From IMG/VR virus record IMGVR_UViG_3300029305_002015, positions 36,956 to 100,955 of that record: a stretch of 64,000 bases of DNA, one strand, 5' to 3'. Source of the stretch: a virus. Lineage: Duplodnaviria; Caudoviricetes. The notes under the pieces are model-generated. The model was not told where the DNA came from and searched no databases. It saw nothing but the letters and a program-made list of their open reading frames with translations. The position numbers were made by a program, and so were the translations under genes. Positions within the stretch are counted from its first letter, which is position 1, and each line of letters begins with the position of its first letter. Of this stretch, positions 6,582 to 37,230 are shown one piece after another.

Positions 6582-9500
6582 ATGGCACTGATTAACAAAC
6601 GCACCGGTTTCTATGGTTTCACTGCTGATGGACTCGGTGGGATTAAGAGCGATAAGACTGGTAGTGTTAAAAAATGTATCATTTCTATTGCATATCAAGT
6701 GCATTTGAGAAATGTTAGATTTAGTATCTCTGGCGGTGCCGATGATTGGGGTGCTCAAATGGGGGATGGGTCCATCATCCCCCTCTCCAACCCCAATACG
6801 TTGTACGTAAACCGTGATAGTGCTATTGTTGAGTTTGACATGGCTACGGCTTACGCCGCCAATTCCCCTTGTGCATTAGTATACAGAAGTGATACTGCTG
6901 CATTTAAAGTTGTTGAAACTGATGATGGATCTGAAGTATATGAAAATACTTTAAGTGGTCACTTTGCATTTACCGTTGAAGGTTATGGTGGTAAGAGTTA
7001 TGACCTCGGATATGTAGATCGTGTTCTTGCTACTATTCCTTTCCCTGTACAAGTATCTGATGTTGAATTCAGTATTAGTGCAGGTGATGATCACTGGGGT
7101 GCTAGAATGGGTGATGGATCTATCATTCCATTAGTCAATCCTGAGGTTTTAGTCACTAATGCTGATAATGCTGTTATCAAATTTGAAATGACTCAACCTT
7201 ATCCCTCTAACTCCCCCTGTATGATTGTATACAGAAGTCCTGAAGCATCTTTCCACCTGGAAGTTGTAGTTATTCCTCCTGAATATGTTCCTGTAACAGA
7301 TATTACTGAGGTTCCTGAATCTCTTGTTGCAGGTACATCTGTAGACTTGTCTCCTTGCTGTGTAGCTCCTACTGATGCTACTGTTCAGGGTATCTCTTGG
7401 ATGGTAATGAGTGGTCCTGCTAAAGTTGAAGGTGATACCTTAACTACTACTGGCCAGGGAACTGTTGTTCTGAAAGCAACTGTCGCAGGTGGTAAAACTG
7501 AAGAGGGTGAAGACTTTACTAAAACATTCAATATTCCAGTAAAGGCTAATAAGATTACAATCTTGGCTCATCCTACTCAGGAGACTACCTTGACTCATGG
7601 AGTTGTTCGTGGTAACTTAACTGTTATTGCTAAATCTGATACTGGTGTAATCAGTTATAAGTGGTATCAGAATAAGATCAATTCTTATACAAATGCTACT
7701 CCTGTTCATAATGGTGCCAAATCTAGTTATACATTCCCTGTGGATATTAGTGCCGGCATCCATTACTACTTCTGCGAGATTAGTAGCCCTGGTGCAACTA
7801 GTGTAAGATCTAATATTGCCAAGGTAAATGTTTTAGTAGAACTTGATTCTGTAACTATTATTCCTGAAATTAGTTCTATGCTTATCACTTCTACTCAGAA
7901 GTTTGATATTACTCATTTACCTGAAGATGCTCATAAACCTCAGATTGCTTGGACTTCTAGTGATCATAACGTTGTCCAGATTGATGAGGAAGGTAATGCA
8001 CTGGCAGTTAACCAGGGTTCCGCGGTGATTACCGCGACAACCCTTGATGGAAGATATAGTGATAGTATCAAGATTACTGTTCCTGCATATGTCTCTGTAA
8101 CTAACATCACTGGTTTAATTACTACTCTATCAACTGGTGTCTATAGTTCGTTAGTTGGTACAGTAGTTCCTTCTAATGCTACAGAGAAATCTATCCAATG
8201 GGCAATTATTGACCAGGGTACTACTGAGGCAATAATTAGTAACAATAGACTGTATGCATCTAAGGCTGGTACAGTTAGATTGAAAGCAACCATTATCAAG
8301 GGTATTTCTCCTACTCAGGATTTCATTAAGGAATTCTCTGTAATTGTTACTAAAGCATTTATTGCTGTAACAGATGTTACCTTAGTAGATTTCCCTGTTC
8401 CTATCAGATGTGACCAGACTGCAATGGTAAAGGGTAAAGTTACTCCTGCAGATGCAGATTATACGGATATCATTTGGACTATTAGTCAGCCTGGTTCAAC
8501 TGGTGCTACTCTAGTAGATGGAGTTATTAGTTTTACTGATCCCGGTACTGTAATATTACTTGCTACTATTCTTAATGGTAAGAGCCCTTCTGTAAACTTT
8601 ACTAAAGAATTCTCTATTAAGATTAATGATCCTTGGGTAGCAATTGATCATGTAGAGTTGACTCCTACTGAGTATGACCCTAACCCGACAAATGGTGAAG
8701 CTATTAAATTAACTGCTATTGTATATCCTGAAAATGCAACAAAGAAAGATGTCATCATGAAAATGCTTGATGACAGTGTTGCAAAAGCTACATTTGATGC
8801 AGCAACTCAGATGCTTCAAGTTAATCCTAAGAATATGAAGCCTACTGATGAGCCTGTTGTAATGATGGAGCTAACTGTAATCGATGGATATACTGAGGGT
8901 AGAGATTATGTAGTAACTCATAATGTCCGTATTATTCCTCCTGCTCCTGAGGATGAATATGTTCCTATTGATCGTATTGATCTAGTATATCCTGAACCAA
9001 TGAGATGTCATTATCCTGTTCTATTAGAGCGGTTTACTGTATATCCTTGGAATGCTTCAGAAATCAATGCTAGATTTAGATCTCAGAGAGCTCAAGAATA
9101 TGGCGGTGCAGATAACATCATTTTCAATCCTAATGAATATGCATTTAGCCATACTCAAAAGAAAGAATTCTTTGATTGGGGATTGGATGAAAACTATCTG
9201 TTCCCATATGACCCTGGTAAAATTAATCTAAACCTAACCGTTGTTAAGGGTTTAGGTCCTGAACCTGGTCAGGATTATATACGAAACTTTGAACTCGATA
9301 TGCTTCCTCCTTATATTGCAGCTAAGGATATCTCCAATATTCCAATTGAAGTTCCTGTAGGTAAGGACTTTATCCTCTCTGGTGAAGTCGAAACTCAAGG
9401 AGGTATTGGATACCATAATCCTACATGGGATGAGGAAGTGCCTAGCTTCGATAATATTATTTGGAGAATTGGTGATGACTACTTCGATACTGATGAATAT

Positions 9501-12500
9501 CCTAATAGGGCTAATGCAGTATTGAAGGGTGAGAATGGTAATACTCTATACTGTAATAGGTCTGGACAATTTACTATCCAAGCATATATCGAGAATGGTA
9601 AAGCTGATGCTGTAAAGTGGTATGATAAGACTCAAATTGGTGAGCCTTTCACTAAACTCTTTACGATTAAAGCTGTCAGTGATACCACTTATAACAAAGC
9701 GATTGTAACTCTTACTCTTAATACTGGTACTAAAGTTCGTGTATATTCAATGGGTGATCTGAATAATCTTTGTAATGATTTACCATCTGATACCACGATT
9801 ACCATTAATGGAACACCATTCAGGAAGGATCAAGTTGTTGGAGTAAGTTTCTGGGAAGAAAGTTATGTAACTGATTCTACTGTTGCAATCAAGGATATTT
9901 CTCTTGATAAGATTGAACTAGAACCTTACGAACTTATTGCTCCTGAAGTAGAAGTAGAGTCATTTGATGGAATTACTCCTAGTAATGATAGTGATGGTTG
10001 TATTACTATCATGGATACCAAGAGTGCATTCTACGGTATGAAGATCTTACCTGACAATGTATATCTACTTCCTGATGGTACTATTATCAGATATTATGAC
10101 TCTAAGAGTTACTTTACTACTGATGGATCTGGAACTATCACCGGTTTAACTCCTGAGGGTAAGGCAATGTTAAATCTGCCTATTCCTTCTATTATCGATG
10201 GTGAAGAAATTACTGCTATTGGTAGTAATGCATTTGATGGTGCAACATTCTCAATTGTGCTTATTCCTAAAACTGTAACTATCATCGGAGCTGGTGCATT
10301 TAACAATTGCTCTAATCTTACCACTGTTATCATTGATAATGGTATTGAAACTATTGAAGATGGAGCATTTGCTGGTTGTGATGATCTGATTAATGTTTTC
10401 TATACTGGATCTGAAGAAGATTGGAATGAGATTGATATCTCTAACACAGATGATTCTAATGCTGTATTAATTAATGCAACTAAAGAATTTGAATATGATA
10501 TTAATCTGGCAAATTCTGTCAAATTCATGATCGATGAAGTTGAATATACTGCACTAAATGGTATGACTTGGGAAGAGTGGGTAAATAGTGAATTTAATAC
10601 TAAAGGATTTACTTCCAATGGTGCTAATATCACTGAAACTGTTGCTGATGAAACCATGTATGTTGCAGTTAATGAAGAAGATGGAATGAGAGTATTATCT
10701 ACTGATATTATCAATGCAAATCACCACTATGTTACTGGTACTGCTGATTCTACCCATAGCCCTGATTTTGCAGCTCTTAATATTGGTGATGGTGATGATG
10801 TTATTCTTAACCTTAAATATGCTCATGACATCTTCAAAGTAGATCCTTCCATTATTCAGATTCCTGATTCTTTTGTAAGATATGATAATGGATGGGTTGG
10901 CATTCCTGCTGGTACTATCTTAAGTACCTCTGGTAGCTTAATTGTACCTAACCCTGAATATGGTGCAACTAGTTTCCATGTAACGGGTATTGTTACCTAT
11001 TCTGATGGAACACCGTTTGTTGGAGCAAAGGTTCGTGCTATGATGGGAACTCAGCAAGTTGGTGCAGAAGCTACTACATCTCCTGAAGGTAAATACACTA
11101 TTAAGAATCTACCTATTGGAAATTACAGGTTGATTGCCGATAATGGCTATGGTGATACTGTCGCAACTGATTTTATGATTGATGGTGAAACTGAAATTGT
11201 TGACCTGAAATTCTCTACTCTTTATTATGAAGCATCTCTAACAATTGCCACTAAAATTATGGATAATCAGAAACTCAGTGACATCAGTATTAGTGGTATT
11301 GCGTTAACTGTTGATGATAAAGAAGTAGCTGGTAAATTCTCGTGGGTAACAACCGATGATGAATTCGATACTTCTTATTCTACCAGCGATGCTTTATGGA
11401 AATTCACTCCTAATAATACCAATAGGTATCTACCCGTATATGGTACTGTAACATTTACTGTGTTATCAAGTATCATTAAGAAAGCTCCAAGTCCTGTAAC
11501 TGATATATTGATTCATAATGGATCTCGTAAATCTCCTACATGGAATGATTATGATTCTGATCAATTAACTATGGGCGGAGATACTTCTGGAACTGACGCT
11601 GGTATGTATTATACCACATTTACTCCTAAGGGTTTATTCACTTGGGAAGATGGAAGTCAGAAGGAAGTAAGCATTTCCTGGGGCATTTATATGCCTTTCC
11701 ATGTTACTAAGAGTAACAGGGGAACGGTTGGATATGATTCTGATAGCTCAGACTTTACCATGAAGGAAACCTTCATCTCTAGTGGTATAATGTATGCACC
11801 TACTAGTATGGATATCCATGTATTTGATAGCTGTACACATCTAAAGACTTTATCTATTCCTGGAACAATGACCGAAATTTCTGAAATGGCATTCGACCAG
11901 TGTTCTGGATTGACTAAAGTTGTTATCAATGAAGGTGTATCTATCATTGGTGCATGTGCTTTCCAGCAATGTAGTTCACTAACAGAAATTACAATTCCAG
12001 CATCTTTAACCCAAGTTGGTTCTAATGCTTTCTCTGGTTGCAGCAAATTATCTACTGTGAATTATGGTGGAACTAAAGAGCAGTGGAATAAACTTAAGGT
12101 AAATATTTCTAGTGGTAACAGTAGACTTACTGGAGCTACTATTAAATATACTGAAGAAGTTGCAACTGTTGAGGAAGAGGGTGAAGAGGCACCTGTTATT
12201 GATCCTACTACTCCTTCTACTGGTGGTAGCACTACTGTTGTACCTGAAGATACTGAAGAAGATGTTGTTGAGGATAAAGAGCCTAACTATGATGTATATC
12301 CGATGCTATATGAAATCTCTATTCATGGTATAGTATTTGATCATACTACTAGTAGGATTTTATTCCCTGATGGTACTTGTATCTTGAATGCTTCCAAAAT
12401 TCTTTTACCTCACAATTACACCTATGATCCTGATACAACATATATCGACCCTGTCAGTGTTGATGAGTCTGATATTTTGATAAAGATGCCTTATGGTGTT

Positions 12501-14324
12501 TACATGAATTCTTCTAAACAGATTTGTGTTCTTGATCTAAAGAGTTTGGTTAGAGGAATGACTGCTGTAAACACTGAAACTGGTAATTTCCTCAGACTTA
12601 CTGATGGATCCCTAATTCATGAATCTGGTATTGTTTACACATCAGCAGGTAAGCTTTATGATATTTATCAGAGAGCTATCAATGAAAACTCTTACTTCAA
12701 TCTTACTGGTGGTGTAAACTTTACTCCAAGTAACGCATCTAACAAATCCATTGATTGGACATTTGATGAAATTCCTGAAGGTACTGTAGTTGCAACATTG
12801 CCTACAAATGGCGGAGACACTCTGCTTATTATTGCAGGTAATAAATCTGGTTACATGATTCTAGATGCATATGTCACTAATGGTTATAGTAGTAGAGATG
12901 ACTATGAACAAAAACTTCTAATTGCTATTGGTGATGTATCTGATGAAGAGGATCGGTTGATTGATATCAACTTTGGTTCTGTAACTAGAACTGTATACAA
13001 GGGCTACAGTAGTACCAATACAACTTTAACAATTGATCTATTTGGTACAAGTGAGGAGATCGAAGATCTTGCTGCCGAGGATATTGAATGGTCAATTACT
13101 GGTGGTTATAAACCTAGCTATGGTGGTGGATATGGTAGATATGGTGCAAGTCCTACGGTGATCTATCCTAGGAGTGATAATCTATCAGCATATCTCTATA
13201 TTAGTAGTTACCAAGAAACTGGTAGTACTATAACCGTAACCGTTACTTGTGGCGACTTTAAGAAAGAACTGAAAGTAAATGTTGCTACGAAGTATAGCTA
13301 TGGTGAACCTTATGTCGGATCTCTTCGTAACTTTGGTAGAAACTTTATTAATCTGAAATCTATAAACCATATTCCTAGTACAGTAAATGGTGATGACTGT
13401 TTAAGAAACTTCCTCATGGGATGTACAAGCTTTAATCAGGCCATTACTATTCCTGATAGCGTTGCTGGTGATAGATGTTTACAGTACTTCCTGAGAGATT
13501 GTACGAGTTTCAATTCTAAGGTTACTATTCCTGAGGAGATTTATGGTGAAGATTGCTTACATGGTTTCCTGTATGGATGTGAAAGCTTTAATAAAGCTAT
13601 CACTATTCCTGAAGGCGTAACTGGTAATGGTTGTCTTGAGAGATTCCTCATGTGTTGTAAGTCTTTCAATCAGAATATCACTATTCCGGAAGGAATTCAG
13701 GGTGATGCATGTCTACGTAATTTTATGACTGAATGTCATGCATTCAACAGACCTATTAGAATTCCTGATGGTATTACTGGTGAAAATTCTATGGATCTAT
13801 TTATGAGAGACTGTAATGCAATGGTTTCTAATGTAACTATTAGCAAACAAGCTGCTCGCAGTGTTGGCGTTAATGGTCAGACATTGTCTACTGTATTTAG
13901 TCAGTCCGATATGTTCATCAATGGTGTTCCTATTATTGGTGATGGTGCTAGACTCTTTATGCGTAAAGCATATAATGTTCTTGGAGCACCTCCTTATCGT
14001 AAATTAAGTACTGTAGAACCTGAGGATGAAGAATTCACCATTACAGTAAACCAGGTTGAAGGTGTTAATGTAACTACTGATCTTGATGCTGCATTTGAAA
14101 TTGATACTGTAGAAGTTACAGTTGAAATTACAGATGAGCTAGTTACAGACGTTCAACTTTCTATTGATGATCCTGATATTGAGCTTGTGTCAATCGGTGA
14201 GAATAAATACGAGTTCACAATGGGTATCAAGAATGTTGTAATTGATGTAACTGTAACAAGACGTGAACCTGATCCTGAACCTGTAGAACCAACTCCTGAA
14301 GAAGGAACCGACACAACTGAATAA
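6582..14324 (+). CDS. Giant Ig-like/LRR adhesin (putative receptor-binding tail appendage)
   Basis: 2580 aa; multiple Big_2-like Ig repeats (WTSSDHNVVQID; YVxVTxI...DFxKxF), two BspA/LRR_5 blocks (ITAIGSNAF, IGACAFQQC), carboxypeptidase-regulatory-like domain, C-terminal FLxxCxSFNxxITIP repeats. Confidence 0.75.
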   Translation: MALINKRTGFYGFTADGLGGIKSDKTGSVKKCIISIAYQVHLRNVRFSISGGADDWGAQMGDGSIIPLSNPNTLYVNRDSAIVEFDMATAYAANSPCALVYRSDTAAFKVVETDDGSEVYENTLSGHFAFTVEGYGGKSYDLGYVDRVLATIPFPVQVSDVEFSISAGDDHWGARMGDGSIIPLVNPEVLVTNADNAVIKFEMTQPYPSNSPCMIVYRSPEASFHLEVVVIPPEYVPVTDITEVPESLVAGTSVDLSPCCVAPTDATVQGISWMVMSGPAKVEGDTLTTTGQGTVVLKATVAGGKTEEGEDFTKTFNIPVKANKITILAHPTQETTLTHGVVRGNLTVIAKSDTGVISYKWYQNKINSYTNATPVHNGAKSSYTFPVDISAGIHYYFCEISSPGATSVRSNIAKVNVLVELDSVTIIPEISSMLITSTQKFDITHLPEDAHKPQIAWTSSDHNVVQIDEEGNALAVNQGSAVITATTLDGRYSDSIKITVPAYVSVTNITGLITTLSTGVYSSLVGTVVPSNATEKSIQWAIIDQGTTEAIISNNRLYASKAGTVRLKATIIKGISPTQDFIKEFSVIVTKAFIAVTDVTLVDFPVPIRCDQTAMVKGKVTPADADYTDIIWTISQPGSTGATLVDGVISFTDPGTVILLATILNGKSPSVNFTKEFSIKINDPWVAIDHVELTPTEYDPNPTNGEAIKLTAIVYPENATKKDVIMKMLDDSVAKATFDAATQMLQVNPKNMKPTDEPVVMMELTVIDGYTEGRDYVVTHNVRIIPPAPEDEYVPIDRIDLVYPEPMRCHYPVLLERFTVYPWNASEINARFRSQRAQEYGGADNIIFNPNEYAFSHTQKKEFFDWGLDENYLFPYDPGKINLNLTVVKGLGPEPGQDYIRNFELDMLPPYIAAKDISNIPIEVPVGKDFILSGEVETQGGIGYHNPTWDEEVPSFDNIIWRIGDDYFDTDEYPNRANAVLKGENGNTLYCNRSGQFTIQAYIENGKADAVKWYDKTQIGEPFTKLFTIKAVSDTTYNKAIVTLTLNTGTKVRVYSMGDLNNLCNDLPSDTTITINGTPFRKDQVVGVSFWEESYVTDSTVAIKDISLDKIELEPYELIAPEVEVESFDGITPSNDSDGCITIMDTKSAFYGMKILPDNVYLLPDGTIIRYYDSKSYFTTDGSGTITGLTPEGKAMLNLPIPSIIDGEEITAIGSNAFDGATFSIVLIPKTVTIIGAGAFNNCSNLTTVIIDNGIETIEDGAFAGCDDLINVFYTGSEEDWNEIDISNTDDSNAVLINATKEFEYDINLANSVKFMIDEVEYTALNGMTWEEWVNSEFNTKGFTSNGANITETVADETMYVAVNEEDGMRVLSTDIINANHHYVTGTADSTHSPDFAALNIGDGDDVILNLKYAHDIFKVDPSIIQIPDSFVRYDNGWVGIPAGTILSTSGSLIVPNPEYGATSFHVTGIVTYSDGTPFVGAKVRAMMGTQQVGAEATTSPEGKYTIKNLPIGNYRLIADNGYGDTVATDFMIDGETEIVDLKFSTLYYEASLTIATKIMDNQKLSDISISGIALTVDDKEVAGKFSWVTTDDEFDTSYSTSDALWKFTPNNTNRYLPVYGTVTFTVLSSIIKKAPSPVTDILIHNGSRKSPTWNDYDSDQLTMGGDTSGTDAGMYYTTFTPKGLFTWEDGSQKEVSISWGIYMPFHVTKSNRGTVGYDSDSSDFTMKETFISSGIMYAPTSMDIHVFDSCTHLKTLSIPGTMTEISEMAFDQCSGLTKVVINEGVSIIGACAFQQCSSLTEITIPASLTQVGSNAFSGCSKLSTVNYGGTKEQWNKLKVNISSGNSRLTGATIKYTEEVATVEEEGEEAPVIDPTTPSTGGSTTVVPEDTEEDVVEDKEPNYDVYPMLYEISIHGIVFDHTTSRILFPDGTCILNASKILLPHNYTYDPDTTYIDPVSVDESDILIKMPYGVYMNSSKQICVLDLKSLVRGMTAVNTETGNFLRLTDGSLIHESGIVYTSAGKLYDIYQRAINENSYFNLTGGVNFTPSNASNKSIDWTFDEIPEGTVVATLPTNGGDTLLIIAGNKSGYMILDAYVTNGYSSRDDYEQKLLIAIGDVSDEEDRLIDINFGSVTRTVYKGYSSTNTTLTIDLFGTSEEIEDLAAEDIEWSITGGYKPSYGGGYGRYGASPTVIYPRSDNLSAYLYISSYQETGSTITVTVTCGDFKKELKVNVATKYSYGEPYVGSLRNFGRNFINLKSINHIPSTVNGDDCLRNFLMGCTSFNQAITIPDSVAGDRCLQYFLRDCTSFNSKVTIPEEIYGEDCLHGFLYGCESFNKAITIPEGVTGNGCLERFLMCCKSFNQNITIPEGIQGDACLRNFMTECHAFNRPIRIPDGITGENSMDLFMRDCNAMVSNVTISKQAARSVGVNGQTLSTVFSQSDMFINGVPIIGDGARLFMRKAYNVLGAPPYRKLSTVEPEDEEFTITVNQVEGVNVTTDLDAAFEIDTVEVTVEITDELVTDVQLSIDDPDIELVSIGENKYEFTMGIKNVVIDVTVTRREPDPEPVEPTPEEGTDTTE

Positions 14325-14431: not shown

Positions 14432-14914
14432 ATGGCTGATAATTCTCAGATTAAACAACATGTAAGTCTTGAGGAGCGTAATAGATGGGATAAGCTCGTT
14501 GAAGACTTTGCGAATCACCTTGGTTCAGGTGGTACTAATAACCATGCTATGGCAAATGGTACTGTTCCTGGTTTTAGCCAGAATAACTATACCACTACAG
14601 AGAAGAATAAACTTGCAGGCATTCAGGAAGGTGCATTGAATAACCCTCACCCTGCAACTCACCCTTATACTATGATCACAGGTCTTAGTACTGTTGCTCA
14701 TACTGGTAGCTATACTGACCTGCTTAACATTCCTAAAACCTTTATTGCAGGTGGCGGTAATGCTGATACTGTTGGTGGTATCAGATTCACTGTTGGACCT
14801 ACTTCACCTGGTTCTCCTGTAAATAATAAAGATGTTTGGTTTGATACCGCTACCAAGCTTGTTAAAGTATATACTGGTAATACCTGGGTACCTTTTAACG
14901 CAGTATATGCATAA
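14432..14914 (+). CDS. Small tail-fibre-associated protein
   Basis: 160 aa; HVSLEERNRWD, YTTTEKNKLAGIQEGA, VAHTGSYTDLLNIP and DVWFDT motifs typical of fibre proteins; RBS AGGAGG. Confidence 0.6.
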   Translation: MADNSQIKQHVSLEERNRWDKLVEDFANHLGSGGTNNHAMANGTVPGFSQNNYTTTEKNKLAGIQEGALNNPHPATHPYTMITGLSTVAHTGSYTDLLNIPKTFIAGGGNADTVGGIRFTVGPTSPGSPVNNKDVWFDTATKLVKVYTGNTWVPFNAVYA

Positions 14915-15017: not shown

Positions 15018-16325
15018 ATGGCTGTTGCAGTTGGAAATGCTATTAATGTGGCTGATATTGCTAATTTATTTAATAGCACAGTTATTGCTAACATTACAAG
15101 TGGAGCACATCATCTAAACAATCCTCCTATGGATGGTTCATATTTTTGTGTTCCATCTAATATGATGGATGACATTAATAATTTACCTACCCCTAGTTTT
15201 GGTGTTAGTGGTGGTAAAATTACTGCATCATCAATTGCTACCGCTCTTATTAATGTTACTCAAAACTTAACTAGAGTTGGTACATTCAGTTATGTACGTA
15301 CATATCGTACACTTCGAGAAATTCGTAGTAGATATGATCCTCTATTACAAAGTACATATAGAGGATATGGTGTTGGATATGTTATTACAAATACCAATAC
15401 GGTTCGAGCTCAAAAGAATGGTAAAGTTATATTTACTAATAGCTATGTTCGACAGCTTGGATCTACTACAGGTGCTACCGCATTAAATTATTCACCTGCT
15501 AGCTACTTTGTAGTTAGTGGTGCAACTATTACTGGATTAACCGCAACCGGTCTTGCAGCAACATCTATTGTAGTACCTGCTGCTATCAATGGTGTTACCA
15601 TCACAGCCATTGGCAGTAATGCATTTAGAGGAAGTGTGGCAAGAACGATTGAAATTCCTTCTAACATTACAAGTATTGGTAATTCTGCATTCCAGGCTTG
15701 TACAGCTCTAACAACGTTAACAATCTATGGTTCTTCTACATCTATAGGTCAGTATGCATTCTATCAGTGTACAGCATTAACTACAGTAACATTCTATGGC
15801 ACCATATCTAGTATTGGTATGTATGCATTCAGACTTTGTAGTGCATTGACTGATGTTAATTTCTATTGTAATATTCAGACCATTGGTCAATATTCGTTCT
15901 ACCAGTGTAGTGCAATTAAATACATTAGATTGCCAAGCTCTGTAACAACGATTGGTACATATGCGTTTTATCTGGCTAATGCTATTACTACAGTATACTA
16001 TGAAGGATCTCAAACTAACTGGAATGCATTATTGATCCAAGCTCAAAATGGTAATATTACAACTTGTACAAAGAGTTATAATTTTACTATTCCTCAGCCT
16101 CCTCAAACAACTACTGCTGGTGCAAATGTAAGTCATACAGTTGTTGCAAACAATCCGATTACTGTTGCTGCATTAAATGCTTTATGTTCTGCATGTTTAC
16201 TGGCATGGCAGCGCACATCTAAATATCATTATAGCTATACAAATGCTACATGTCATAATGACTGTCATAGTAGTTGTCATTATGATTGTCATAATGACTG
16301 TCATAGTGACTGTTATAGTGATTAA
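15018..16325 (+). CDS. BspA/LRR_5 protein with C-terminal CXXX x6 repeat (candidate radical-SAM substrate)
   Basis: 435 aa; central LRR_5 repeats (TSIGxxAFxxCxxL); ends ...TCHNDCHSSCHYDCHNDCHSDCYSD*; RBS AAGGAG. Confidence 0.7.
   Translation: MAVAVGNAINVADIANLFNSTVIANITSGAHHLNNPPMDGSYFCVPSNMMDDINNLPTPSFGVSGGKITASSIATALINVTQNLTRVGTFSYVRTYRTLREIRSRYDPLLQSTYRGYGVGYVITNTNTVRAQKNGKVIFTNSYVRQLGSTTGATALNYSPASYFVVSGATITGLTATGLAATSIVVPAAINGVTITAIGSNAFRGSVARTIEIPSNITSIGNSAFQACTALTTLTIYGSSTSIGQYAFYQCTALTTVTFYGTISSIGMYAFRLCSALTDVNFYCNIQTIGQYSFYQCSAIKYIRLPSSVTTIGTYAFYLANAITTVYYEGSQTNWNALLIQAQNGNITTCTKSYNFTIPQPPQTTTAGANVSHTVVANNPITVAALNALCSACLLAWQRTSKYHYSYTNATCHNDCHSSCHYDCHNDCHSDCYSD
16251..16322 (+). repeat. 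Six imperfect 12-bp tandem repeats encoding CXXX
   Basis: tgtcataatgac tgtcatagtagt tgtcattatgat tgtcataatgac tgtcatagtgac tgttatagtgat, then TAA. Confidence 0.95.
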
Positions 16326-16348
16326 CTAAATAAGGAGGAACTATCATC

Positions 16349-17098
16349 GTGAAATATCTCACATTACCATTGGATATTGGAGTTATTGAAAATTTTAATC
16401 AAGAAGATATAATGATTGATATGTCAGATTTACAATTCCCCTGTAAACCTGAATTAAAAATAAGATCTGCATTTATCTTCATTCGGAATGTTGATTTAAA
16501 TATGAATTTGGATTTTTCTAAATGCTCCTTTAAAATGAAGGAAGAATTCTTATTAATGTATCTAACAGGGAATATTGGTGTAAATATTCCCTGTATACGT
16601 GATACATGGATTGATATTCTTCTATATAGATATAATAAGGACAATTTACTTATTGGAATCATGGATTCAAAAGAGATAGAGAAATTCAGTCTGAAACATA
16701 ATGATCTAATTACAGAAGTATATACATTGATTGCATCTCTACCTGTAATGGTCATATATCAATATTCTAAATCTCCTGCAACATATGCCGAATTAATAAA
16801 ATTTGATGGAGAATTTGAAGAGTCTGATTATGATAAAATCAATTTCAGTAATTTTTCAAGACTTACTGAAAGTAGAAGATTTGGAGGAGTAATGATTGAT
16901 GTTGATAAATACCCACAGAAATTTTATAAACATTATTTTGCTGGGAATGATCAAATATCAATGGCTAGGTTAAATGAGAATCTTCCTTTGATGAATCTTC
17001 TAAATATCTTCTTTTCTCCTAAAGATACTCAAGAACGCTTTATTAGCGGATTAAATGATTTACTAACTACGGAGGAGGTAAGTGAAAATAATGAGTGA
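16349..17098 (+). CDS. Hypothetical protein in the radical SAM cluster
   Basis: 249 aa, GTG start after AAGGAGG; no recognisable motif. Confidence 0.7.
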   Translation: MKYLTLPLDIGVIENFNQEDIMIDMSDLQFPCKPELKIRSAFIFIRNVDLNMNLDFSKCSFKMKEEFLLMYLTGNIGVNIPCIRDTWIDILLYRYNKDNLLIGIMDSKEIEKFSLKHNDLITEVYTLIASLPVMVIYQYSKSPATYAELIKFDGEFEESDYDKINFSNFSRLTESRRFGGVMIDVDKYPQKFYKHYFAGNDQISMARLNENLPLMNLLNIFFSPKDTQERFISGLNDLLTTEEVSENNE

Positions 17099-18353
17099 CC
17101 ATATGTACAATGAACTACAATTGAAAGTTCAACTTCCTCAAATGACAATGGATAATTATTTTCTAAGTAAAAATGATTTATCAATATCTCGTCATTTGAG
17201 TACTAAGCAAGTTATAAGAATTCCTGCTGCTGAAGTAAAGGAGATTCTAGCTGAAAAAGAATATGACATGCCTGATTTCTTGGTCATGTTTGAAGATGGT
17301 TTAGCTGAATCTGATGTATCTAAGTATGCTGATATGAGCGATGGTTATCAAATGTCTGAATACTTCAGTAAAGCAGATTTTTATATTCCTACATTTGATT
17401 ACTTTAGGGCTGTTAAGTTTGGTGGAATTGATTGTATCATGAATATTTATAATGGTAGACAATGTAAGATTCCATTTAAACAGGTTCTAAGTAAGATTAA
17501 GATTGAAACTCCTGAGGAACAGGAAGCACATACTGATGTATATCCTTTCCCAATGATCACAAAGGATACTATTAATTATACGAAGTTCAAGAATGTATCT
17601 TATTGTGATAATCTTCGTACTCAGACATATATGTATAGATTTCCTGCTCTATGTTTAAATCTCCCATATAAGTATTATAAATCTCAGAATATCCCTGAGA
17701 ATATTTACTTCTGGGATGTTGATACTAAAGAGTTAGGATTTGCTGGACATTCTACAGATGAAATCTTTGAATGGTTTGAGGATATTTGTAAGCATGGTTT
17801 ACAGAAACCCTTATATTTCCAAATCTCTCAAGGACAAATTGTTTCTGCTACAGATGAGGATTACATTAAACTATTAATTGCTCAATATCTGAAGATTCCT
17901 ACAATTCCAGTTGTAGCATATATGTTAAATAACTCTGCTAAGAGTAGTATGCTTATTAGTATGAGACCTTGTGATATTATAGGAGCTCGCACAGGTAGCT
18001 TAAATACTGATAAAGAAACTTTAACTCTTATCAATGAAATCTGTTCTCCATATTTTATCTTCTTTAATTCAAACCTTACTGATTCTTTATCAGTAAATGA
18101 AAATGTGCATGAGGATATGGAAAATAAAGATGGCCCAGTTTATAATCAAATATTTGATTCAACTCATAATGATTTAGATTATAATGAATCATATCTATTA
18201 CAGAATGATGATAGTAATATATTTGATGATAATCTTGGTGATCCTACTCCTTCTTATATTCTCCATGAAAATATGAGGAATGATATTCAGAAACAAATCA
18301 ATGAAGATATAGAAAGATCATTAAAGCAATTGGAATTGTTATCAGGTCAGTGA
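17082..18353 (+). CDS. Hypothetical protein with degenerate ParB/Srx-like segment
   Basis: 423 aa; overlaps the previous gene; FEDICKHGLQKPL...KLLIAQYLKIPTIPVV resembles ParB N-domain spacing but lacks GxxR. Confidence 0.55.
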   Translation: MKIMSDHMYNELQLKVQLPQMTMDNYFLSKNDLSISRHLSTKQVIRIPAAEVKEILAEKEYDMPDFLVMFEDGLAESDVSKYADMSDGYQMSEYFSKADFYIPTFDYFRAVKFGGIDCIMNIYNGRQCKIPFKQVLSKIKIETPEEQEAHTDVYPFPMITKDTINYTKFKNVSYCDNLRTQTYMYRFPALCLNLPYKYYKSQNIPENIYFWDVDTKELGFAGHSTDEIFEWFEDICKHGLQKPLYFQISQGQIVSATDEDYIKLLIAQYLKIPTIPVVAYMLNNSAKSSMLISMRPCDIIGARTGSLNTDKETLTLINEICSPYFIFFNSNLTDSLSVNENVHEDMENKDGPVYNQIFDSTHNDLDYNESYLLQNDDSNIFDDNLGDPTPSYILHENMRNDIQKQINEDIERSLKQLELLSGQ

Positions 18354-18361
18354 TAAATACA

Positions 18362-18411
18362 ATGATATAGATTATATGGCATTGCGCCATATAATCTATA
18401 TCATCTTTTTT
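18362..18411 (+). terminator. 19-bp stem hairpin followed by T tract
   Basis: atgatatagattatatggc-attgc-gccatataatctatatcat then ctttttt. Confidence 0.65.
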
Positions 18412-18454
18412 AACAGCTTAAGTAAAAATCTTATTTTATCAAGGGGGAATAAAA

Positions 18455-19435
18455 ATGGAGTTAATTATTAAACCTACTGGTAGATGTAACTTTGCATGTA
18501 CATTCTGTTCAGCAGGAGATATGACTATTCAACATCCTAAGGATGATAAAGTTCCTGAACAAATTAAAGACTTAATCAATCGAATGAACCCTACAAGATT
18601 AATTATTACTGGTGGGGAACCTTTAATGGTATCACCTGAATATTATTATGAACTTCATGAAATGGTACCTGATGCTTATATTAGTCCTACGACTAATCTT
18701 AAAGATTTCTATCTAAATCCTGAAAAATGGGCTCCTCTATTTAATGAGGAATGGTTTAAAATTACTACATCATTTAACTATGGTGATAGTAGACGATGGG
18801 ATAAAGATACAGTATTTACAGAAGAAATGTTTATTAAGGTAATGGATAAATTCAGGGAGTATGTACCTAATAAATCTCTTCCAATGTTTATTGCTGTAAT
18901 TGATGAAAGTAATGCTGATAAAGTTATGGATCATATTTTATTAGCAAAGCGGCTTGATTCTATGTGTAAACTTAATAGAGCTATTGGTGTTGGATATCAA
19001 GAAGTTGGTTATCAGCGTTATAAAATTATGAAAGATTATCTTGATATTATTGATGCTGGCTTAGAAAAATATGAATGGAATTGTGCTAATAGAGCAAATG
19101 GTACATGTCCATACAATATTCATCATACATGTGAATCTACAATTAGGTGTGTATATGTAGCTTGTGATGGTACATTACATGTAGGAACATGTGATGAAAG
19201 AGTATCTATGGGATATGAAATTCCTGAAGATAAACTAATCAATCCTTCATATATTCCTAAATATGAGCATATTAACCCATCAGATTATATTAGTCCCAAA
19301 TGTGCATATTGTGAGTTATTCAATTTATGCAATGCATGTGGAACTAATAGAATTGAAGCTAAACTGGATCCAAATTATTGTGATGAAATGAAGAAGCTTG
19401 AGTCAAGAATAATTGAATCTGGTTGGGCATTATAA
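18455..19435 (+). CDS. Radical SAM/SPASM domain protein (anSME/peptide-maturase-like)
   Basis: LIIKPTGRCNFACTFC (CxxxCxxC), TGGEPL, C-terminal CAYCELFNLCNAC SPASM-type cysteines. Confidence 0.9.
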   Translation: MELIIKPTGRCNFACTFCSAGDMTIQHPKDDKVPEQIKDLINRMNPTRLIITGGEPLMVSPEYYYELHEMVPDAYISPTTNLKDFYLNPEKWAPLFNEEWFKITTSFNYGDSRRWDKDTVFTEEMFIKVMDKFREYVPNKSLPMFIAVIDESNADKVMDHILLAKRLDSMCKLNRAIGVGYQEVGYQRYKIMKDYLDIIDAGLEKYEWNCANRANGTCPYNIHHTCESTIRCVYVACDGTLHVGTCDERVSMGYEIPEDKLINPSYIPKYEHINPSDYISPKCAYCELFNLCNACGTNRIEAKLDPNYCDEMKKLESRIIESGWAL

Positions 19436-19447
19436 AGGAGGATATAA

Positions 19448-20269
19448 ATGTATAAGCGTAAAACCATCTATGCATTATTAACTAGAAAATGTAATCTCTC
19501 CTGTCCACATTGTGATGTCCATAATATTGTAGATGATTTTGATAAAGAGAAGTTTCTTAGTAGGTTAATTCAAACAGAAGGAAAGATCATTCTGTTTGGA
19601 GGTGAGCCTACTTTATATCAGGATCGTCTATTTGATATTGTAAATGAATGTAAAAAAGCTGGTAGAAAAATTGGATCTATATCTACCAATCTGATGATTC
19701 TTAATGACCAATTATTAGCTCTATTTAAAGAAATTGGTAGTGTTGCAACGTCATGGAATCCTAATAGATTTACACCCATTCAATATGATATATGGTATAA
19801 GAATTGTATCAATCTTGCTATAACAGTGAATGTTAAACCAACCCTAATGATCACATTAGATAATGATCTAATGGAGATGGGTGTTGATGAATTTCTAAAA
19901 GTTGTTGATAATTGGGATCCAAATGTATTTAAGAAGATTAAAATGGAACATCTCAATTGTATTGATAACACTCCAGAATATTTTGATCGAGTAGATGATT
20001 TCCTATGTGAATTATATTCTAAATGGAGATCTGATATTTATAATGATATCAATGGACGGATCAAGAATTGGTGGTTTGATTGTACAGGAGTATGTACAAT
20101 TGAGCCTAATGGAAATATTATTCCTAAATGTCCACATGATGTAAATCCAACTATTCCTGAAGAGTGTTATTCATGTGAACGAGCGGATGTATGTAGACCT
20201 TGTGTATTACAACATCATTGCTCATTCCCAAAAAAGTTTGCTAAATTAGTTTCTGATGGAGGTAATTAG
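19448..20269 (+). CDS. Radical SAM/SPASM domain protein
   Basis: CNLSCPHC, FGGEPTL, ISTN, C-terminal CTGVCTIEPNG...CP...CYSCERADVCRPC...HC. Confidence 0.9.
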   Translation: MYKRKTIYALLTRKCNLSCPHCDVHNIVDDFDKEKFLSRLIQTEGKIILFGGEPTLYQDRLFDIVNECKKAGRKIGSISTNLMILNDQLLALFKEIGSVATSWNPNRFTPIQYDIWYKNCINLAITVNVKPTLMITLDNDLMEMGVDEFLKVVDNWDPNVFKKIKMEHLNCIDNTPEYFDRVDDFLCELYSKWRSDIYNDINGRIKNWWFDCTGVCTIEPNGNIIPKCPHDVNPTIPEECYSCERADVCRPCVLQHHCSFPKKFAKLVSDGGN

Positions 20270-20270
20270 A

Positions 20271-21413
20271 GTGACATTTAAAAACTTTCCAACATATATG
20301 ACAGAAGATGAATTTATCCAATTCTGGAAGGAATACTTCGAAGAACATCAGATGAAGGAGAAAGAAGATGTAAACATTTATGTACACTATCCATGGTGTA
20401 GAAGTGTATGTAAATTCTGTATCTTTGGTGCTTTAAAACTAGAAGAGAATCGTCATCTGGTGGAACCGTATGAACGAGCAACTTTAAGAATGATGGAACG
20501 AATGGCTCCAATTATAGAAACTCAAAAGGTTTCTGAGTTGTTCTTTGGTGGTGGTACCCCTAGTTTATGGACTATGGAATCATTAAAAAGAATGACTGAA
20601 ATCTTACCAAATTATGATAAGATTGGGATTCGTCGTACAGAGATACATCCATCTGATATGACTGATGAGCGAATGGAATTTATGATTAATACGATGAAGT
20701 TTCATCATATCAGTATTGGAGTTCAGTCATTTGATAAAGCATCTTGTAAAGGTCAGAACAGAATTCATATTTCTCCAGAACAACTTGCTCATGTTGTTAA
20801 GACGTTTCAGAAAGCAGGTTTATATGTAAACTGCGACCTAGTAGCATTATTCAATGGACCTGATGAGAAGAACTGGGATATCTTTAAAGAAGATCTACGA
20901 ATAATGGAAACAGTTGTCCATCCTGATGCAATGACTGTATCTCCAAATTATCGAGAAGATTATTATAATAATTCTATTAAATTCCGTAAGATCATCAAAG
21001 AGTTCAATGATACTCAAACTGGTGGGTATCATTTGAATTATGGAGATCAGGCATTTTCTCTTGATAAGATGGATATTATTCGTCATATGGATAGACCTTA
21101 TATTTTCCTTACTGATGAATATGCAAGATTTGTATTAGATCATCCAGTACTTAGTGAAACTAAAACTAAGGAAGAAATGGATAATCGAAATATGATTGCT
21201 TTTGGTGGTATTGATGGTGAAGGTGCATTTAGTAGAACTGCTGAATATCACTACATCAATGGTATATACATCCCTCAAGACGATGAATTCCATTATAGAT
21301 GTAAAAAGAAATCAATGTTTGAAAGATTGAATATCAAGAATGATAATGATTTCTATAATAATGAAATTCATATTGGTCAGGGATTTGTACTTCCACCTCC
21401 AACCCGTGAATAA
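20271..21413 (+). CDS. HemN-like (class C-type) radical SAM protein
   Basis: IYVHYPWCRSVCKFC, FFGGGTPS, ISIGVQSF. GTG at 20271 follows GGAGG (track starts at 20256). Confidence 0.85.
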   Translation: MTFKNFPTYMTEDEFIQFWKEYFEEHQMKEKEDVNIYVHYPWCRSVCKFCIFGALKLEENRHLVEPYERATLRMMERMAPIIETQKVSELFFGGGTPSLWTMESLKRMTEILPNYDKIGIRRTEIHPSDMTDERMEFMINTMKFHHISIGVQSFDKASCKGQNRIHISPEQLAHVVKTFQKAGLYVNCDLVALFNGPDEKNWDIFKEDLRIMETVVHPDAMTVSPNYREDYYNNSIKFRKIIKEFNDTQTGGYHLNYGDQAFSLDKMDIIRHMDRPYIFLTDEYARFVLDHPVLSETKTKEEMDNRNMIAFGGIDGEGAFSRTAEYHYINGIYIPQDDEFHYRCKKKSMFERLNIKNDNDFYNNEIHIGQGFVLPPPTRE

Positions 21414-21450: not shown

Positions 21451-21657
21451 ATGGAATTTACTGAAAGAGATCAGCAAGCTATTAAAGAATATCTTGGATA
21501 TATCCGTGCTGGTTCTAAACGTATCTATGAAATTGATGATAGTAGATATCGTGATGAAATTGCAAAGTTGATGCAAGAGGATGTAGATGCAGGTAGATCT
21601 ACTGGTCATGAACGTAGAGCATTACGTGAATATAATGAACGCTATAGAAAGGATTAA
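21451..21657 (+). CDS. Hypothetical protein
   Basis: 68 aa, RBS AAGGAGG. Confidence 0.65.
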   Translation: MEFTERDQQAIKEYLGYIRAGSKRIYEIDDSRYRDEIAKLMQEDVDAGRSTGHERRALREYNERYRKD

Positions 21658-21668
21658 GGTGAACTAAT

Positions 21669-21875
21669 ATGGCTAAGAAACATGTTATCAAATATTGGGC
21701 TAGATTACTTCAGAAAGGAACTTTTAAAGAATCCGAAGTTCCTGAAGATATCAGAGCTGAAGTAGTAGCAACATCCTTATCTCTTCCTCCTCGTGAAAGT
21801 ATTTTCGATGATACGAAACCTGTTGTAGAGGAAGATGCTGAATCTACTAACACTAGTGAACCTACAGAAGAATAA
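21669..21875 (+). CDS. CD1375-like small phage protein
   Basis: YWARLLQKGTFKESEVPEDIRAEV resembles the CD1375 family, often found near tail-fibre genes. Confidence 0.5.
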   Translation: MAKKHVIKYWARLLQKGTFKESEVPEDIRAEVVATSLSLPPRESIFDDTKPVVEEDAESTNTSEPTEE

Positions 21876-21878
21876 AAG

Positions 21879-21909
21879 AATAAGAGGGAGCACAATGCTC
21901 CCTCTTATT
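21879..21909. terminator. Bidirectional terminator between convergent genes
   Basis: aataagagggagca-caa-tgctccctcttatt. Confidence 0.8.
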
Positions 21910-21916
21910 TTACTTA

Positions 21917-23821
21917 TTATACATAAGCTTCAACGGTTTCATTATGAGATTCATTGACATCACTGTCAAGGAAGATACACTGATTACCAGAGATCAGAAT
22001 CTTGATAAGTTCAGATGCTACAGACAGAACCATTGCATCAGTCTCAGCAGAAGTAATGATATTCTCATTATACTCAAGAGTCTCAAGATCGAAAGTTTTA
22101 TTCTGCTGGATAGAACTATTAATGATCTCTGCACCCTTATCAATTGCAGCCTGTTCAAGAGCAGCTACTGCTTCAGGTTCATTGGAAGTATACTGCCAAC
22201 GATCAACGAGTTTGATCATACCCTGACCAGTTGCACCATGTAGAACCTGAGCATATACCATTCGAACTGCATCATAGATCATATCCAGAATACCATATCT
22301 GAGACGGATATCATTAGTAAGGCTCTTCATGTATTCATTCGGATTCTCGGTCTTCTCAGGAAGGATATCTCTCATTGCATCAATACATGCACGAGCAATT
22401 GTGATCTGACAACCAGGAACAACACCATACTTGATTGCAGAACGTACACACTTTATTACATCTTCAACGGAGTCCCAAATAATCTGTTTCTGAAGATCAC
22501 TATCTGCACCAATGTAATAGATGAAGTTCTTCATCTCTAACTGAAGTACACGAGCATTGGCTTCATAGATCTTGGAAGAATAAGACTGCTTCTCTGCATC
22601 AGTAGTAGCAGTAATCTGCTCAAGATCAGTACGAGCACGGCGAAGTGCATCCTGATATTTCTCATCAGATTCAATATCCTCAACACGGAAGATAGAACCT
22701 GTATTACAAGACAGAAGAGCTTCTGCTGCCTTACCAATTACTCGATGGAACTCATAACTGTTATTATTGAGAACATCTTCAACCCATGCGTCAACAGTAG
22801 CACGATCAAACTTTTCAATCATACCAGTATACAGTTCCTGAGTAATAACTTTAGCTCTGAGAATAGTAGCCAAGTCAACAAGCTGATTAGGCTCAAGTTT
22901 ACCCATTGCATACTGAGCCATAATGATATTAATTCCACCCTTATTTCTCATCTCATAAGTGAGATACTGATCAACAACAGTTTCACACATATAAGCATCA
23001 TAGAAAGGAGCAAGGATAAGAAGTTTACTACCCATGGCTCTCATACATTCATTGATAGGAATAATGAACTTGTTAAACATATCAGTTTCAACTTTGTGAT
23101 CAAAGATCATTACAAATACATTCTTCTCAGTAGCACTAAGATCCTGATTACGAACAAAAGCATCACTGATAAGATTGGCAGGGAAATCAAATCCATTGAT
23201 TGCAGATACATAAGACTTATTAGTAGGAGAATCCTTCATTTTAATGGAAGGAGATTTAGCATTCTTATAAGTCTCAGCAATAGCATGAGCAATCTCTTCA
23301 TTACCATTAGACGTTACATATGCAATATTATAAATGGAATCATAATCAGTAGGATCAATAGGTCTAGCAGCACTATGAACTCTATTCTTCAGATCCTCAA
23401 TAATTTCATCCCAAGCTCTATTGAACTGACGAGGAAGCCTATATAAAGTGTTAAAAGCAGCCTTACGGCTAATAACACCATTACCACCATTATATTGCTT
23501 GAATAAAGCATTGGTAAGGACGATAGCAGTAGTAGTACCATCACCTACGGTATTATTCATACGAATACAAGGTGCTTTGATAAGATTATATATCATCCTC
23601 TTATAACGGTTATGGAAACGATACTTCATTAAGATGGCATGTCCATCTTTCGTAGCCTCAGTCATCATACCATCAAGAATGGTAGCAGATGAACCTAGAG
23701 GTCCTAACGACTTGCTTAAATTATCGGAGATAACTCCAAATACCTCATTGATCAATCCCTCGAATTCTTCTTGAGGAATAATGTTGCAATGATTCTGATT
23801 AGAATAGTCTAAAAATCCCAT
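21917..23821 (-). CDS. groEL: Phage GroEL-like chaperonin
   Basis: 634 aa; SLGPLG, TKDG, GDGTTTA, EDVIKCVRSAIKYGVVPG equatorial-domain motifs. Confidence 0.9.
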   Translation of the reverse strand: MGFLDYSNQNHCNIIPQEEFEGLINEVFGVISDNLSKSLGPLGSSATILDGMMTEATKDGHAILMKYRFHNRYKRMIYNLIKAPCIRMNNTVGDGTTTAIVLTNALFKQYNGGNGVISRKAAFNTLYRLPRQFNRAWDEIIEDLKNRVHSAARPIDPTDYDSIYNIAYVTSNGNEEIAHAIAETYKNAKSPSIKMKDSPTNKSYVSAINGFDFPANLISDAFVRNQDLSATEKNVFVMIFDHKVETDMFNKFIIPINECMRAMGSKLLILAPFYDAYMCETVVDQYLTYEMRNKGGINIIMAQYAMGKLEPNQLVDLATILRAKVITQELYTGMIEKFDRATVDAWVEDVLNNNSYEFHRVIGKAAEALLSCNTGSIFRVEDIESDEKYQDALRRARTDLEQITATTDAEKQSYSSKIYEANARVLQLEMKNFIYYIGADSDLQKQIIWDSVEDVIKCVRSAIKYGVVPGCQITIARACIDAMRDILPEKTENPNEYMKSLTNDIRLRYGILDMIYDAVRMVYAQVLHGATGQGMIKLVDRWQYTSNEPEAVAALEQAAIDKGAEIINSSIQQNKTFDLETLEYNENIITSAETDAMVLSVASELIKILISGNQCIFLDSDVNESHNETVEAYV

Positions 23822-36513: not shown

Positions 36514-37230
36514 TTAATCAACGTAGAATTCCTTCATGTCATCCAACCTGATACAAGCAAGGCGCCCACCTTCAACATCGCTAAACTGATAGGCTGCTCC
36601 GCAATCAATACCAATAATATTACCCTTATGATAAATTTCCATTGGTACCTTTCCAGTTAGATTACATGTAGGAGTATGTCCAAAGATCGTTATGAAGTTA
36701 TCAATCTCAGAAAATACATGGATAAGCTCTCTTTCCCATACAGAGAAATATGCTCTAGATTCGCCCATGAGTTGATCTTCAAGTGCATCATACAACTCAC
36801 AAGGAACTGCATGAACCAACTTAAAGTTCTTACCATTGACTTCAAGATCATACTTAAGAGGGAGATCATTTAGATATTTCTTAATCTCCTTCTTCTCCTC
36901 AGATGAAAGTTTATTCCATGCCTGGAAAGTTATTCTACCCCCATTCATAAACCATTGTTTCTTCAGCTCATAGTTCGGTAAACCAGCTGTACATCCTTCA
37001 GGTTCATACGGAAATCCAAGTGCATCCATCATCATATACTCATGATTACCAAGAAGCATATGGACATTCTCCATCTTAATGATTCTCTGGAGAAGTTCGA
37101 TTCCATAAGGATTCCTATCAACTATATCACCCAGGATGAACAGTTCGTCGCTATCAGAAAAATTGATCTTCTTAAGCATACTATCAAAAGCTTTCTTATT
37201 GCCGTGAATATCAGACATAACATAAATCAT
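36514..37230 (-). CDS. Ser/Thr protein phosphatase (PPP family, lambda NinI-like)
   Basis: SDIHG, LGDIVDR, LGNHE, W-x-x-NGG, VHA, FGHTP, IDCG motifs; ATG at 37230 after AAAGGAG. Confidence 0.92.
   Translation of the reverse strand: MIYVMSDIHGNKKAFDSMLKKINFSDSDELFILGDIVDRNPYGIELLQRIIKMENVHMLLGNHEYMMMDALGFPYEPEGCTAGLPNYELKKQWFMNGGRITFQAWNKLSSEEKKEIKKYLNDLPLKYDLEVNGKNFKLVHAVPCELYDALEDQLMGESRAYFSVWERELIHVFSEIDNFITIFGHTPTCNLTGKVPMEIYHKGNIIGIDCGAAYQFSDVEGGRLACIRLDDMKEFYVD

Follow-up and report, generated by a model that had tools for sequence, protein, structure and literature searches.

A cassette of radical SAM genes behind tail-fibre genes

We analyzed a 64,000-nucleotide stretch of viral DNA (Caudoviricetes; positions 36,956 to 100,955 of the IMG/VR record IMGVR_UViG_3300029305_002015), hereafter the window, and focused on a gene cassette in it that seems devoted to the maturation of a protein with a Cys-His repeat at its end. 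Six open reading frames (ORFs) on the same (+) strand span positions 15018-21413 in the ORF list of the window. They encode the repeat-bearing protein (TAIL), two further proteins (u249 and u423), and three radical S-adenosylmethionine (rSAM) enzymes, all detailed in Table 1. An earlier note, written from the DNA letters, had described at this place a leucine-rich repeat (LRR) protein ending in six CXXX units, two further proteins, and three rSAM enzymes behind fibre genes. This gene content is confirmed: the ORFs and the Pfam matches to LRR_5 and Radical_SAM agree with it. Upstream of the cassette lie the genes of a 1264-amino-acid (aa) tail-fibre protein and of a 2580-aa giant with Ig and LRR domains, followed by p160, and PHROG matches (tail fibre, tail collar fibre) identify the upstream genes as fibre-like. 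Three results go beyond the earlier note. The LRR domain is an insertion, u249 is the universal partner of a family of such tail proteins, and the whole cluster represents a cut-down form of a much larger cassette.

Table 1. Features of the cassette and its borders (positions in the window).
Feature	Position	Strand	Description	Basis or remark
p160	14432..14914	+	small conserved fibre-region protein preceding the cassette	weak match to PHROG 18608; L120 (80% identity) and L299 (53%) have homologues in this position
TAIL	15018..16325	+	435 aa; conserved body, inserted BspA-type LRR, C-terminal Cys-His repeat	Pfam, family alignments, AF2
LRR insertion in TAIL	15501..16043	+	about residues 162-342	missing from L299, L121, and all canonical members
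Candidate core	16251..16322	+	six C-[H/Y]-x-x units, a duplicated three-unit block	Tandem Repeats Finder, family alignments
u249	16349..17098	+	249 aa; partner of the phrog_20767 family	hhalign, PHROG, AF2
u423	17082..18353	+	423 aa; branch-specific; start probably at 17091	six homologues
Hairpin	18362..18404	+	19-bp hairpin then T-run, separating substrate genes from enzyme genes	
rSAM1	18455..19435	+	326 aa; SPASM-type; cassette "type C" (RSF1 ORF079 / Atu_ph07 gp165 type)	Pfam, profiles, Cys pattern
rSAM2	19448..20269	+	273 aa; SPASM-type; cassette "type A"	Pfam, profiles, Cys pattern
HemN-like rSAM	likely 20271..21413	+		ORF open from 20256 (385 aa)
Two 68-aa ORFs	21451..21875	+	close the operon; no family	both kept in L120, the second also in L299
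Hairpin	21877..21911	.	bidirectional terminator-like, at the operon end	hairpin call

The tail-bearing protein and its Cys-His end

The last 24 residues of TAIL read CHND CHSS CHYD CHND CHSD CYSD. The corresponding DNA is equally well described by Tandem Repeats Finder as a 12-bp repeat in 5.9 copies or a 36-bp repeat in 2.0 copies, i.e., the six units are a block of three units that was duplicated. Small proteins with comparable ends are found in the multi-rSAM clusters of the phages RSF1 (ORF071, ending CHSS CHSS CHGS RGRR) and Atu_ph07 (gp170, ending CHSS CHAS CHNS RSRR), so that the earlier note was right about CHSSCH tails in other large myoviruses. We refer to these (CHxS)3-RGRR proteins and their relatives as the canonical family. 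The body of TAIL aligns with this family at both ends, over the N-terminal helix, P37, the helix with A70, and the C-terminal helix and strand. In the alignments of TAIL with the family (A3 and A5), C412, H413, C416, H417, and C420 are invariant, and P37 and A70 are conserved. The Cys and His columns of the tail are invariant across the family, and the conserved tail residues amount to these two, with Tyr in some third units. The fourth position of the unit is mostly Asp in the window and Ser in most family members.

Between the conserved ends, TAIL carries an LRR_5 match (residues 196-320, E 2.2e-35 in Pfam). The alignment places this insertion in TAIL and in one relative, L120, and in none of L299, L121, and the canonical members. 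Hence, judging from the alignment, a small conserved body carries the LRR domain as an insertion specific to this lineage. It is 37-42% identical to the LRR modules of the adjoining 2580-aa fibre protein, one of which appears to have been copied into TAIL. The AlphaFold2 (AF2) model of TAIL, with a predicted local distance difference test score (pLDDT) of 72, has helices at residues 11-29, 70-84, and 383-401 and strands at 90-97 and 405-412; residues 162-342 form the LRR solenoid, and from residue 413 on the tail is of low confidence. Since the pLDDT falls to about 44 directly past the last body strand, the tail is predicted to be flexible or disordered. The model matched LRR proteins only when compared with viral structures, and the profile of the body found nothing below E 0.2 among PDB sequences. 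The 2580-aa fibre protein itself (6582-14324) holds several BspA-type LRR modules together with Ig-like domains.

The canonical family is tightly linked to radical SAM genes

To delimit the family, the DNA pattern C-H-x-x C-H-x-x C-[HY]-x-x R-x-R-R-stop was searched in IMG/VR, giving at least 120 matches, and every match listed is the in-frame end of an ORF of 125-310 aa. When 1.84 billion proteins were searched with the family profile, 887 clusters (50% identity level) were retrieved, of which 650 have E<=1e-10. In the best 150 of the 887 representatives, the unit count is exactly three in 143, and about 96% of the 150 close with R-x-R-R. Other unit numbers occur, and three, four, five, and six units have been seen. 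A pattern of at least four units followed by a stop gave no further real members in IMG/VR. A pattern of five C-H-x-x units without the stop hit almost only off-frame tandem repeats and later served as a control set.

The earlier note had proposed the co-occurrence of such tails with rSAM genes as a test of its idea. Among the IMG/VR matches listed, an rSAM homologue is present at 102 of the 114 tail loci, and at all 17 of those with at least 4 kb on both sides, with a median gap of 3 bp between the tail gene and the nearest rSAM gene. By comparison, an rSAM gene was found at 2 of 117 control loci (quasi-random viral loci of the same mean size), and both of these, L075 and L098, turned out to hold genuine CHxS-repeat proteins of the same family. 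The pattern also occurs 48 times in cellular genome assemblies, mostly of Bdellovibrionota and Bacteriovoracia, where 32 of the 34 loci with an intact tail ORF have an rSAM gene. The expected co-occurrence is thus observed in viral and cellular DNA alike.

The usual order in canonical cassettes is fibre-like proteins, a cupin/JmjC protein, an rSAM, the tail protein, a phrog_20767 protein, a protein of about 370 aa without assigned function, more rSAMs, and 2-oxoglutarate (2OG)-Fe(II) oxygenases. Fibre genes lie upstream in the window and in most canonical loci. We found no paper in the literature that describes this cassette, and genome papers list its genes just as rSAM, cupin, or 2OG proteins.

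Some further loci are of note. In L075 (1642-2865, - strand), six CHxS units stand in the middle of a protein; behind them come a linker rich in Pro and Thr and, at the C-terminus, a Hint-like domain. The gene adjoins a type A rSAM. Self-cleavage by the Hint domain, if it occurs, would turn the repeats into the C-terminus. In L121 (1-20954), a 237-kb phage contig, about twelve rSAM genes on both strands surround, within 20 kb, a 230-aa tail protein ending in three units and RGRR. A metagenome-assembled genome of Succinivibrionaceae also holds cassette fragments, among them a partner of the u249 type, and further fragments lie on a short contig from an isolate of Dysosmobacter segnis (L369 and L356). 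Gut hosts, prophages, or binned phage DNA are possible explanations for these two. The rSAM cluster of RP12/RP31 looks different.

The window belongs to a minimal branch of the family

Two jumbo-phage contigs, L120 (292 kb) and L299 (289 kb), both 100% complete according to CheckV, share with the window the gene order fibre, p160, tail protein, u249, u423, rSAM1, rSAM2, and HemN-like rSAM. Compared with the window, the proteins are 43-80% identical in L120 and 27-53% in L299. The tail of L120 reads CHTV CHNN CYRD CHDD CHDD CYSD, and its protein has the LRR domain. The tail protein of L299 has 205 aa, no LRR domain, and ends in four CHxx units and five residues; at 27-32% identity it bridges the TAIL of the window and the canonical family. 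The repeat is kept in both relatives while the x positions differ, which shows that it is no chance feature. Since the whole genomes of L120 and L299 contain no clear rSAMs other than the three of the cassette, these three enzymes are the full set of the branch. The window contig (101 kb) is probably a fragment of a jumbo phage of about 290 kb. On these comparisons, the cassette is placed as a divergent, minimal, oxygen-free branch of the larger phage cassette family, with three rSAMs, no oxygenases, and an animal-faeces source.

A universal partner protein and a branch-specific one

The earlier note had left both non-enzymatic proteins behind TAIL as unknown, which is still apt for u423 and no longer for u249. 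When compared with the canonical partner family, u249 scored 99.2% in hhalign (E 2.5e-19 over 224 columns), and it matches PHROG 20767 (E 3.9e-6). These profile matches place it as a homologue of phrog_20767, the partner gene found almost everywhere directly after the tail gene. The AF2 model of u249 is of high quality (pLDDT 91, predicted template modelling score (pTM) 0.86). In Foldseek it found no PDB match at E<=0.001 and the best VIA-align Z was 3.4, so we assign no fold and do not claim a new one.

We also modelled TAIL and u249 together. The predicted complex passed, with an interface score (ipSAE) of 0.75 against 0.00 for the best of three controls. Of 80 solved complexes 58 attain this ipSAE mark, and of 110 mismatched pairs 2 do so, counts that are only rough here since we used alignments of our own. 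The runs share at least 31% of the contacts, and the partner has a pLDDT of at least 80. The predicted interface comprises residues 11-26 and 57-88 of TAIL, which include the invariant A70, and the C-terminal half of u249. The modelling hence supports binding between the two proteins.

The protein u423 is found at the same position in L120 (55% identity) and L299 (27%), and has only six homologues in all. It has no Pfam, NCBIfam, or PHROG family, and hhalign did not link it to those proteins (f5, f12, f23) that occupy its position in canonical cassettes. By its homologues, u423 is specific to the branch of the window. A likeness to ParB_N came up in the ESM Atlas, but these leads were weak (0.87, TM 0.2) and were not used.

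Three radical SAM enzymes, two of them of SPASM type

The three enzymes exceed the cut-off of the Pfam model PF04055 Radical_SAM (29.5 bits) with 52.3, 33.2, and 55.1 bits, and the cysteines of CxxxCxxC are invariant in the alignments of the enzyme families. The sequences of rSAM1 and rSAM2 begin at this motif. In its C-terminal part, rSAM1 has seven cysteines that are 97-100% conserved (C218, C226, C283, C286, C292, C295, C309), and rSAM2 has six that are invariant (C212, C228, C240, C243, C249, C258). Among solved structures, anSME is by profile the closest relative of the rSAM1 family, the alignment spanning the full length (E 1e-7). The profile of the rSAM2 family aligns with 8vpo, CteB, and anSME from about their residue 100 on and through the SPASM region. 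We call both enzymes SPASM-type because of these six to seven invariant C-terminal cysteines and the full-length profile matches to anSME and CteB. The label given in the earlier note is thereby upheld by the cysteines and profiles, and not by the SPASM model of Pfam. As the match of rSAM2 starts only at residue ~100 of its solved relatives, this enzyme has no N-terminal recognition domain of the RiPP recognition element (RRE) kind (RiPP, a peptide made by the ribosome and modified after translation).

Both enzymes have counterparts in canonical cassettes. At 31-34% identity to its homologues in cultured jumbo phages, rSAM1 groups with RSF1 ORF079 and Atu_ph07 gp165 (type C). The second enzyme, rSAM2, groups with RSF1 ORF070, i.e., with type A, the rSAM that normally stands directly before the tail gene. 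Its best matches outside the branch are rSAMs at position -1 (24 of the top 40), at a low identity of 24-30%.

The third enzyme is related to HemN. The rSAM and GGGTP motifs are invariant in its alignment (A4), and its nearest solved structures by profile are HemN (1olt, E 3.9e-18) and the class C methyltransferase NocN (E 1.1e-15). It matches the NCBIfam models of hemN, HemW, and ChuW with E values of 1e-18 to 1e-22, its best score being 77 bits against equivalog cut-offs of 205-504. The HemN_C domain (PF06969), carried by generic HemN and HemW matches, is missing in this enzyme and in the 23 clusters of its subfamily. These features set it apart as a separate subfamily of 23 clusters. The gene lies inside the cassette in L120 and L299, and more distant phage HemN-like genes lie outside cassettes. 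Its start is most likely the GTG at 20271, because a ribosome-binding site (GGAGG) is present and the relatives begin there. A pVip identity was considered and rejected, since PADLOC gave a generic likeness to the rSAM core only.

Comparison with known systems

The closest comparison is with the canonical (C-H-x-S)x3-RGRR cassette, known from the isolates RSF1/RSL2, Atu_ph07, and SURPRISE13. It shares with the window the body elements of the tail protein, the C-H-x-x register, the phrog_20767 partner, rSAMs of types A and C, and the location behind fibre genes. The window differs by its six units, its acidic end without R-x-R-R, and the LRR insertion. It also lacks the cupin/JmjC protein, the 2OG oxygenases, and rSAMs of types B, D, and E, and has the HemN-like rSAM and u423 instead.

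Outside this family, the HXS antiphage system matures a whole protein, HxsA, by the rSAMs HxsB and HxsC with the helper HxsD (Li et al., Nat Commun 2026, PMC13128918). Two rSAMs and a small helper thus act there on a whole protein with short His-containing tandem repeats, the modification lies in the repeat, and the helper binds one of its rSAMs (PMC13128918). Yet HXS is a system of bacterial defence, not of phages, and its H-x-S repeat has no Cys and is not C-terminal. In NCBIfam, the HxsC model gave 28.9 and 27.1 bits (cut-off 267.9), over the N-terminal core only, and HxsA, HxsB, and HxsD gave no match. The CXXX-repeat targets (TIGR04114, TIGR04117) also have C-terminal Cys-x-x-x repeats beside rSAM maturases, but without a conserved His. 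Against the tail these two models reached E values of 0.18-4.7 and 7.9-11.9 bits (cut-offs 20 and 50), and no CXXX-repeat maturase model is among the NCBIfam matches of the enzymes.

PapB, CrpC, and the sactisynthase CteB are, like the enzymes compared here, SPASM-type rSAMs, and they link a Cys sulfur to a carbon of another residue. The substrate of PapB, PapA, has six Cys-X3-Asp motifs and is a RiPP peptide, not a whole protein (PMC9413430), and CrpC acts on CrpA, a whole-protein thioether substrate (PMC13692751). The alignment of the rSAM2 family with CteB and the prevalence of Asp at position 4 in the window, which recalls the Cys-X3-Asp of PapA, fit this group. On the other hand, the window enzymes lack the N-terminal RRE of ranthipeptide systems, and canonical tails have Ser, not Asp, at position 4. 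The PapB model (NF047865) gave 23 bits, for a cut-off of 340. Finally, anSME is a SPASM rSAM that oxidizes Cys or Ser within a folded protein substrate. The window system differs from it by an equivalog score of 22 bits (cut-off 349) and has no C/S-x-P-x-R motif and no sulfatase. Since no model of the HXS, CrpA, or PapA families accepts its proteins, the window system is alike in logic and is not a member of them. By analogy, HxsA and CrpA offer precedents for rSAM action on whole proteins, and PapA, with its six Cys-X3-Asp links, offers another one on a RiPP peptide.

A proposed maturation pathway for a fibre-associated protein

We consider it likely that the locus is a protein-maturation cassette, in which TAIL is the substrate, its tail is modified by the rSAMs, and the finished protein is used with the tail fibres. 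The interpretation in the earlier note, by which the phage may crosslink the C-terminus of its own fibre-region protein, is thus partly supported. The substrate would consist of a small helical body, the inserted adhesin-type LRR, and a flexible array of six Cys-His tetrads. The partner u249 would bind the conserved N-terminal helices of the body, which would act as a built-in leader. It would replace the recognition domain missing from the two short SPASM-type rSAMs and present the tail to them. In such a scheme rSAM2 (type A) and rSAM1 (type C) would modify the tail by radical chemistry, the likeliest outcomes being Cys-based thioether links or Cys oxidation. A Cys-Asp link is not the conserved reaction, because position 4 is Ser in canonical tails. 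The HemN-like enzyme, which resembles class C methyltransferases, would contribute another step, perhaps the addition of a one-carbon unit. Once matured, TAIL would act with the tail fibres at the cell surface.

What the data establish is which genes are present, how they are related, how very closely they are linked in genomes, and that the tail is invariant, whereas modification of the tail, its chemistry, and a location in the virion are what we infer. Because fibre genes are neighbours, an LRR domain is inserted, and predatory bacteria hold the family too, we suggest that the protein acts at the particle or at the surface of the cell. The tolerance of the body for a domain of receptor-binding type points in the same direction.

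A number of points weigh against this proposal. Virion proteomics naming the tail protein was not found in the literature. The complex of TAIL and u249 is a model prediction rather than a measurement, and the SPASM domain models of Pfam and NCBIfam do not match the enzymes even at E<=10. Three to nine enzymes for a tail of 16-24 residues is unusual, and u423 has no role in the scheme. The tail of the window is acidic, lacks the terminal R-x-R-R, and ends in Asp, so the rules of recognition may differ from those of canonical tails. Moreover, Cys/His arrays can simply bind metals.

This last point leads to the first alternative, which we regard as unlikely. The Cys-His array would be a metal or iron-sulfur site and TAIL an accessory subunit, electron donor, or scaffold, with the enzymes acting in reality on fibre proteins, on DNA bases, or on some small molecule. 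Cys-His pairs, three or six in number, could plausibly serve as ligands, rSAM enzymes require a reductant, and the tail is as invariant as a cofactor site would be. Yet the number of units varies from 3 to 6, tandem duplication of the tail gene is frequent, the body tolerates an inserted LRR adhesin domain that was copied from a module of fibre type, and one relative (L075) fuses a Hint-like domain behind the repeats. Such traits suit a structural or substrate protein and not a redox subunit. The nearest solved relatives of the enzymes, furthermore, act on proteins or peptides.

A second alternative, to which we give little credence, is a true RiPP pathway, where the modified tail is cut off and works on its own, as a bioactive peptide or a cofactor, in the manner of mycofactocin and pyrroloquinoline quinone (PQQ), the body being a leader only. 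The invariant C-terminal core and the separate binding partner do resemble the established MftA/MftB/MftC logic, and the predicted complex would use the body as a leader is used. But the body is large and folded, with an adhesin domain, and the genes sit among fibre genes. The earlier note had also stated that the cassette encodes no protease or exporter, and scans with Pfam, NCBIfam, and PHROG bear this out; neither these nor a further tailoring enzyme are found in the cassette or in the complete L120 and L299 genomes.

Coincidental adjacency, with the rSAMs serving nucleotide, haem, or cofactor metabolism unrelated to the tail, could draw on the dihydrofolate reductase genes that interrupt the RSF1 cassette and on the HemN-like genes that other phages hold outside any cassette, but it is highly improbable: the linkage statistics are extreme and bring it close to refuted, the HemN-like subfamily member of L299 is again within the cassette, and no other haem genes are present.

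In phage particles, the known covalent changes are for the most part autocatalytic, as the crosslinks of HK97, or proteolytic. If a fibre-region protein is finished by a dedicated radical pathway of several enzymes, as proposed for TAIL, this would add a new layer to virion biology, and the enzymes would be a new protein-modifying rSAM family, with at least 650 sequence clusters. The window narrows the core set to four components: the tail protein, its phrog_20767 partner, and one rSAM each of types A and C. It also shows that the oxygenases are dispensable or replaceable in an anaerobic setting. More tentatively, phages and predatory bacteria might use a battery of radical enzymes to build from the fibre-associated Cys-His end a covalent, possibly metal-binding or redox-active, structure that is needed to attach to or breach the envelope of the prey, an idea that we hold to be possible but doubtful. 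Were it correct, it would amount to a new class of enzyme-installed modification of virion proteins, for which the gut phage of the window would have the smallest set of enzymes, an anaerobic one. The cultured carriers of the canonical cassette (RSL2/RSF1, Atu_ph07, and Burkholderia phage S13) make the question directly testable.

Regulatory features, neighbouring genes, and source

The hairpin between u423 and rSAM1 is perfect, with a stem of 19-20 bp and T-runs on both strands, and may let the levels of substrate and enzyme genes vary independently. A GC-rich hairpin lies upstream of the TAIL gene. A megablast search of the region against GenBank phages gave zero matches. The stretch is present in seven animal-faeces DNA sequencing runs, and the holders listed include no RNA run. 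On the far side of the cassette, a gene for a GroEL-like chaperonin (21917-23821, - strand; PHROG 5725, E 4e-67) converges on the terminator, and its product is 79% identical in L120.

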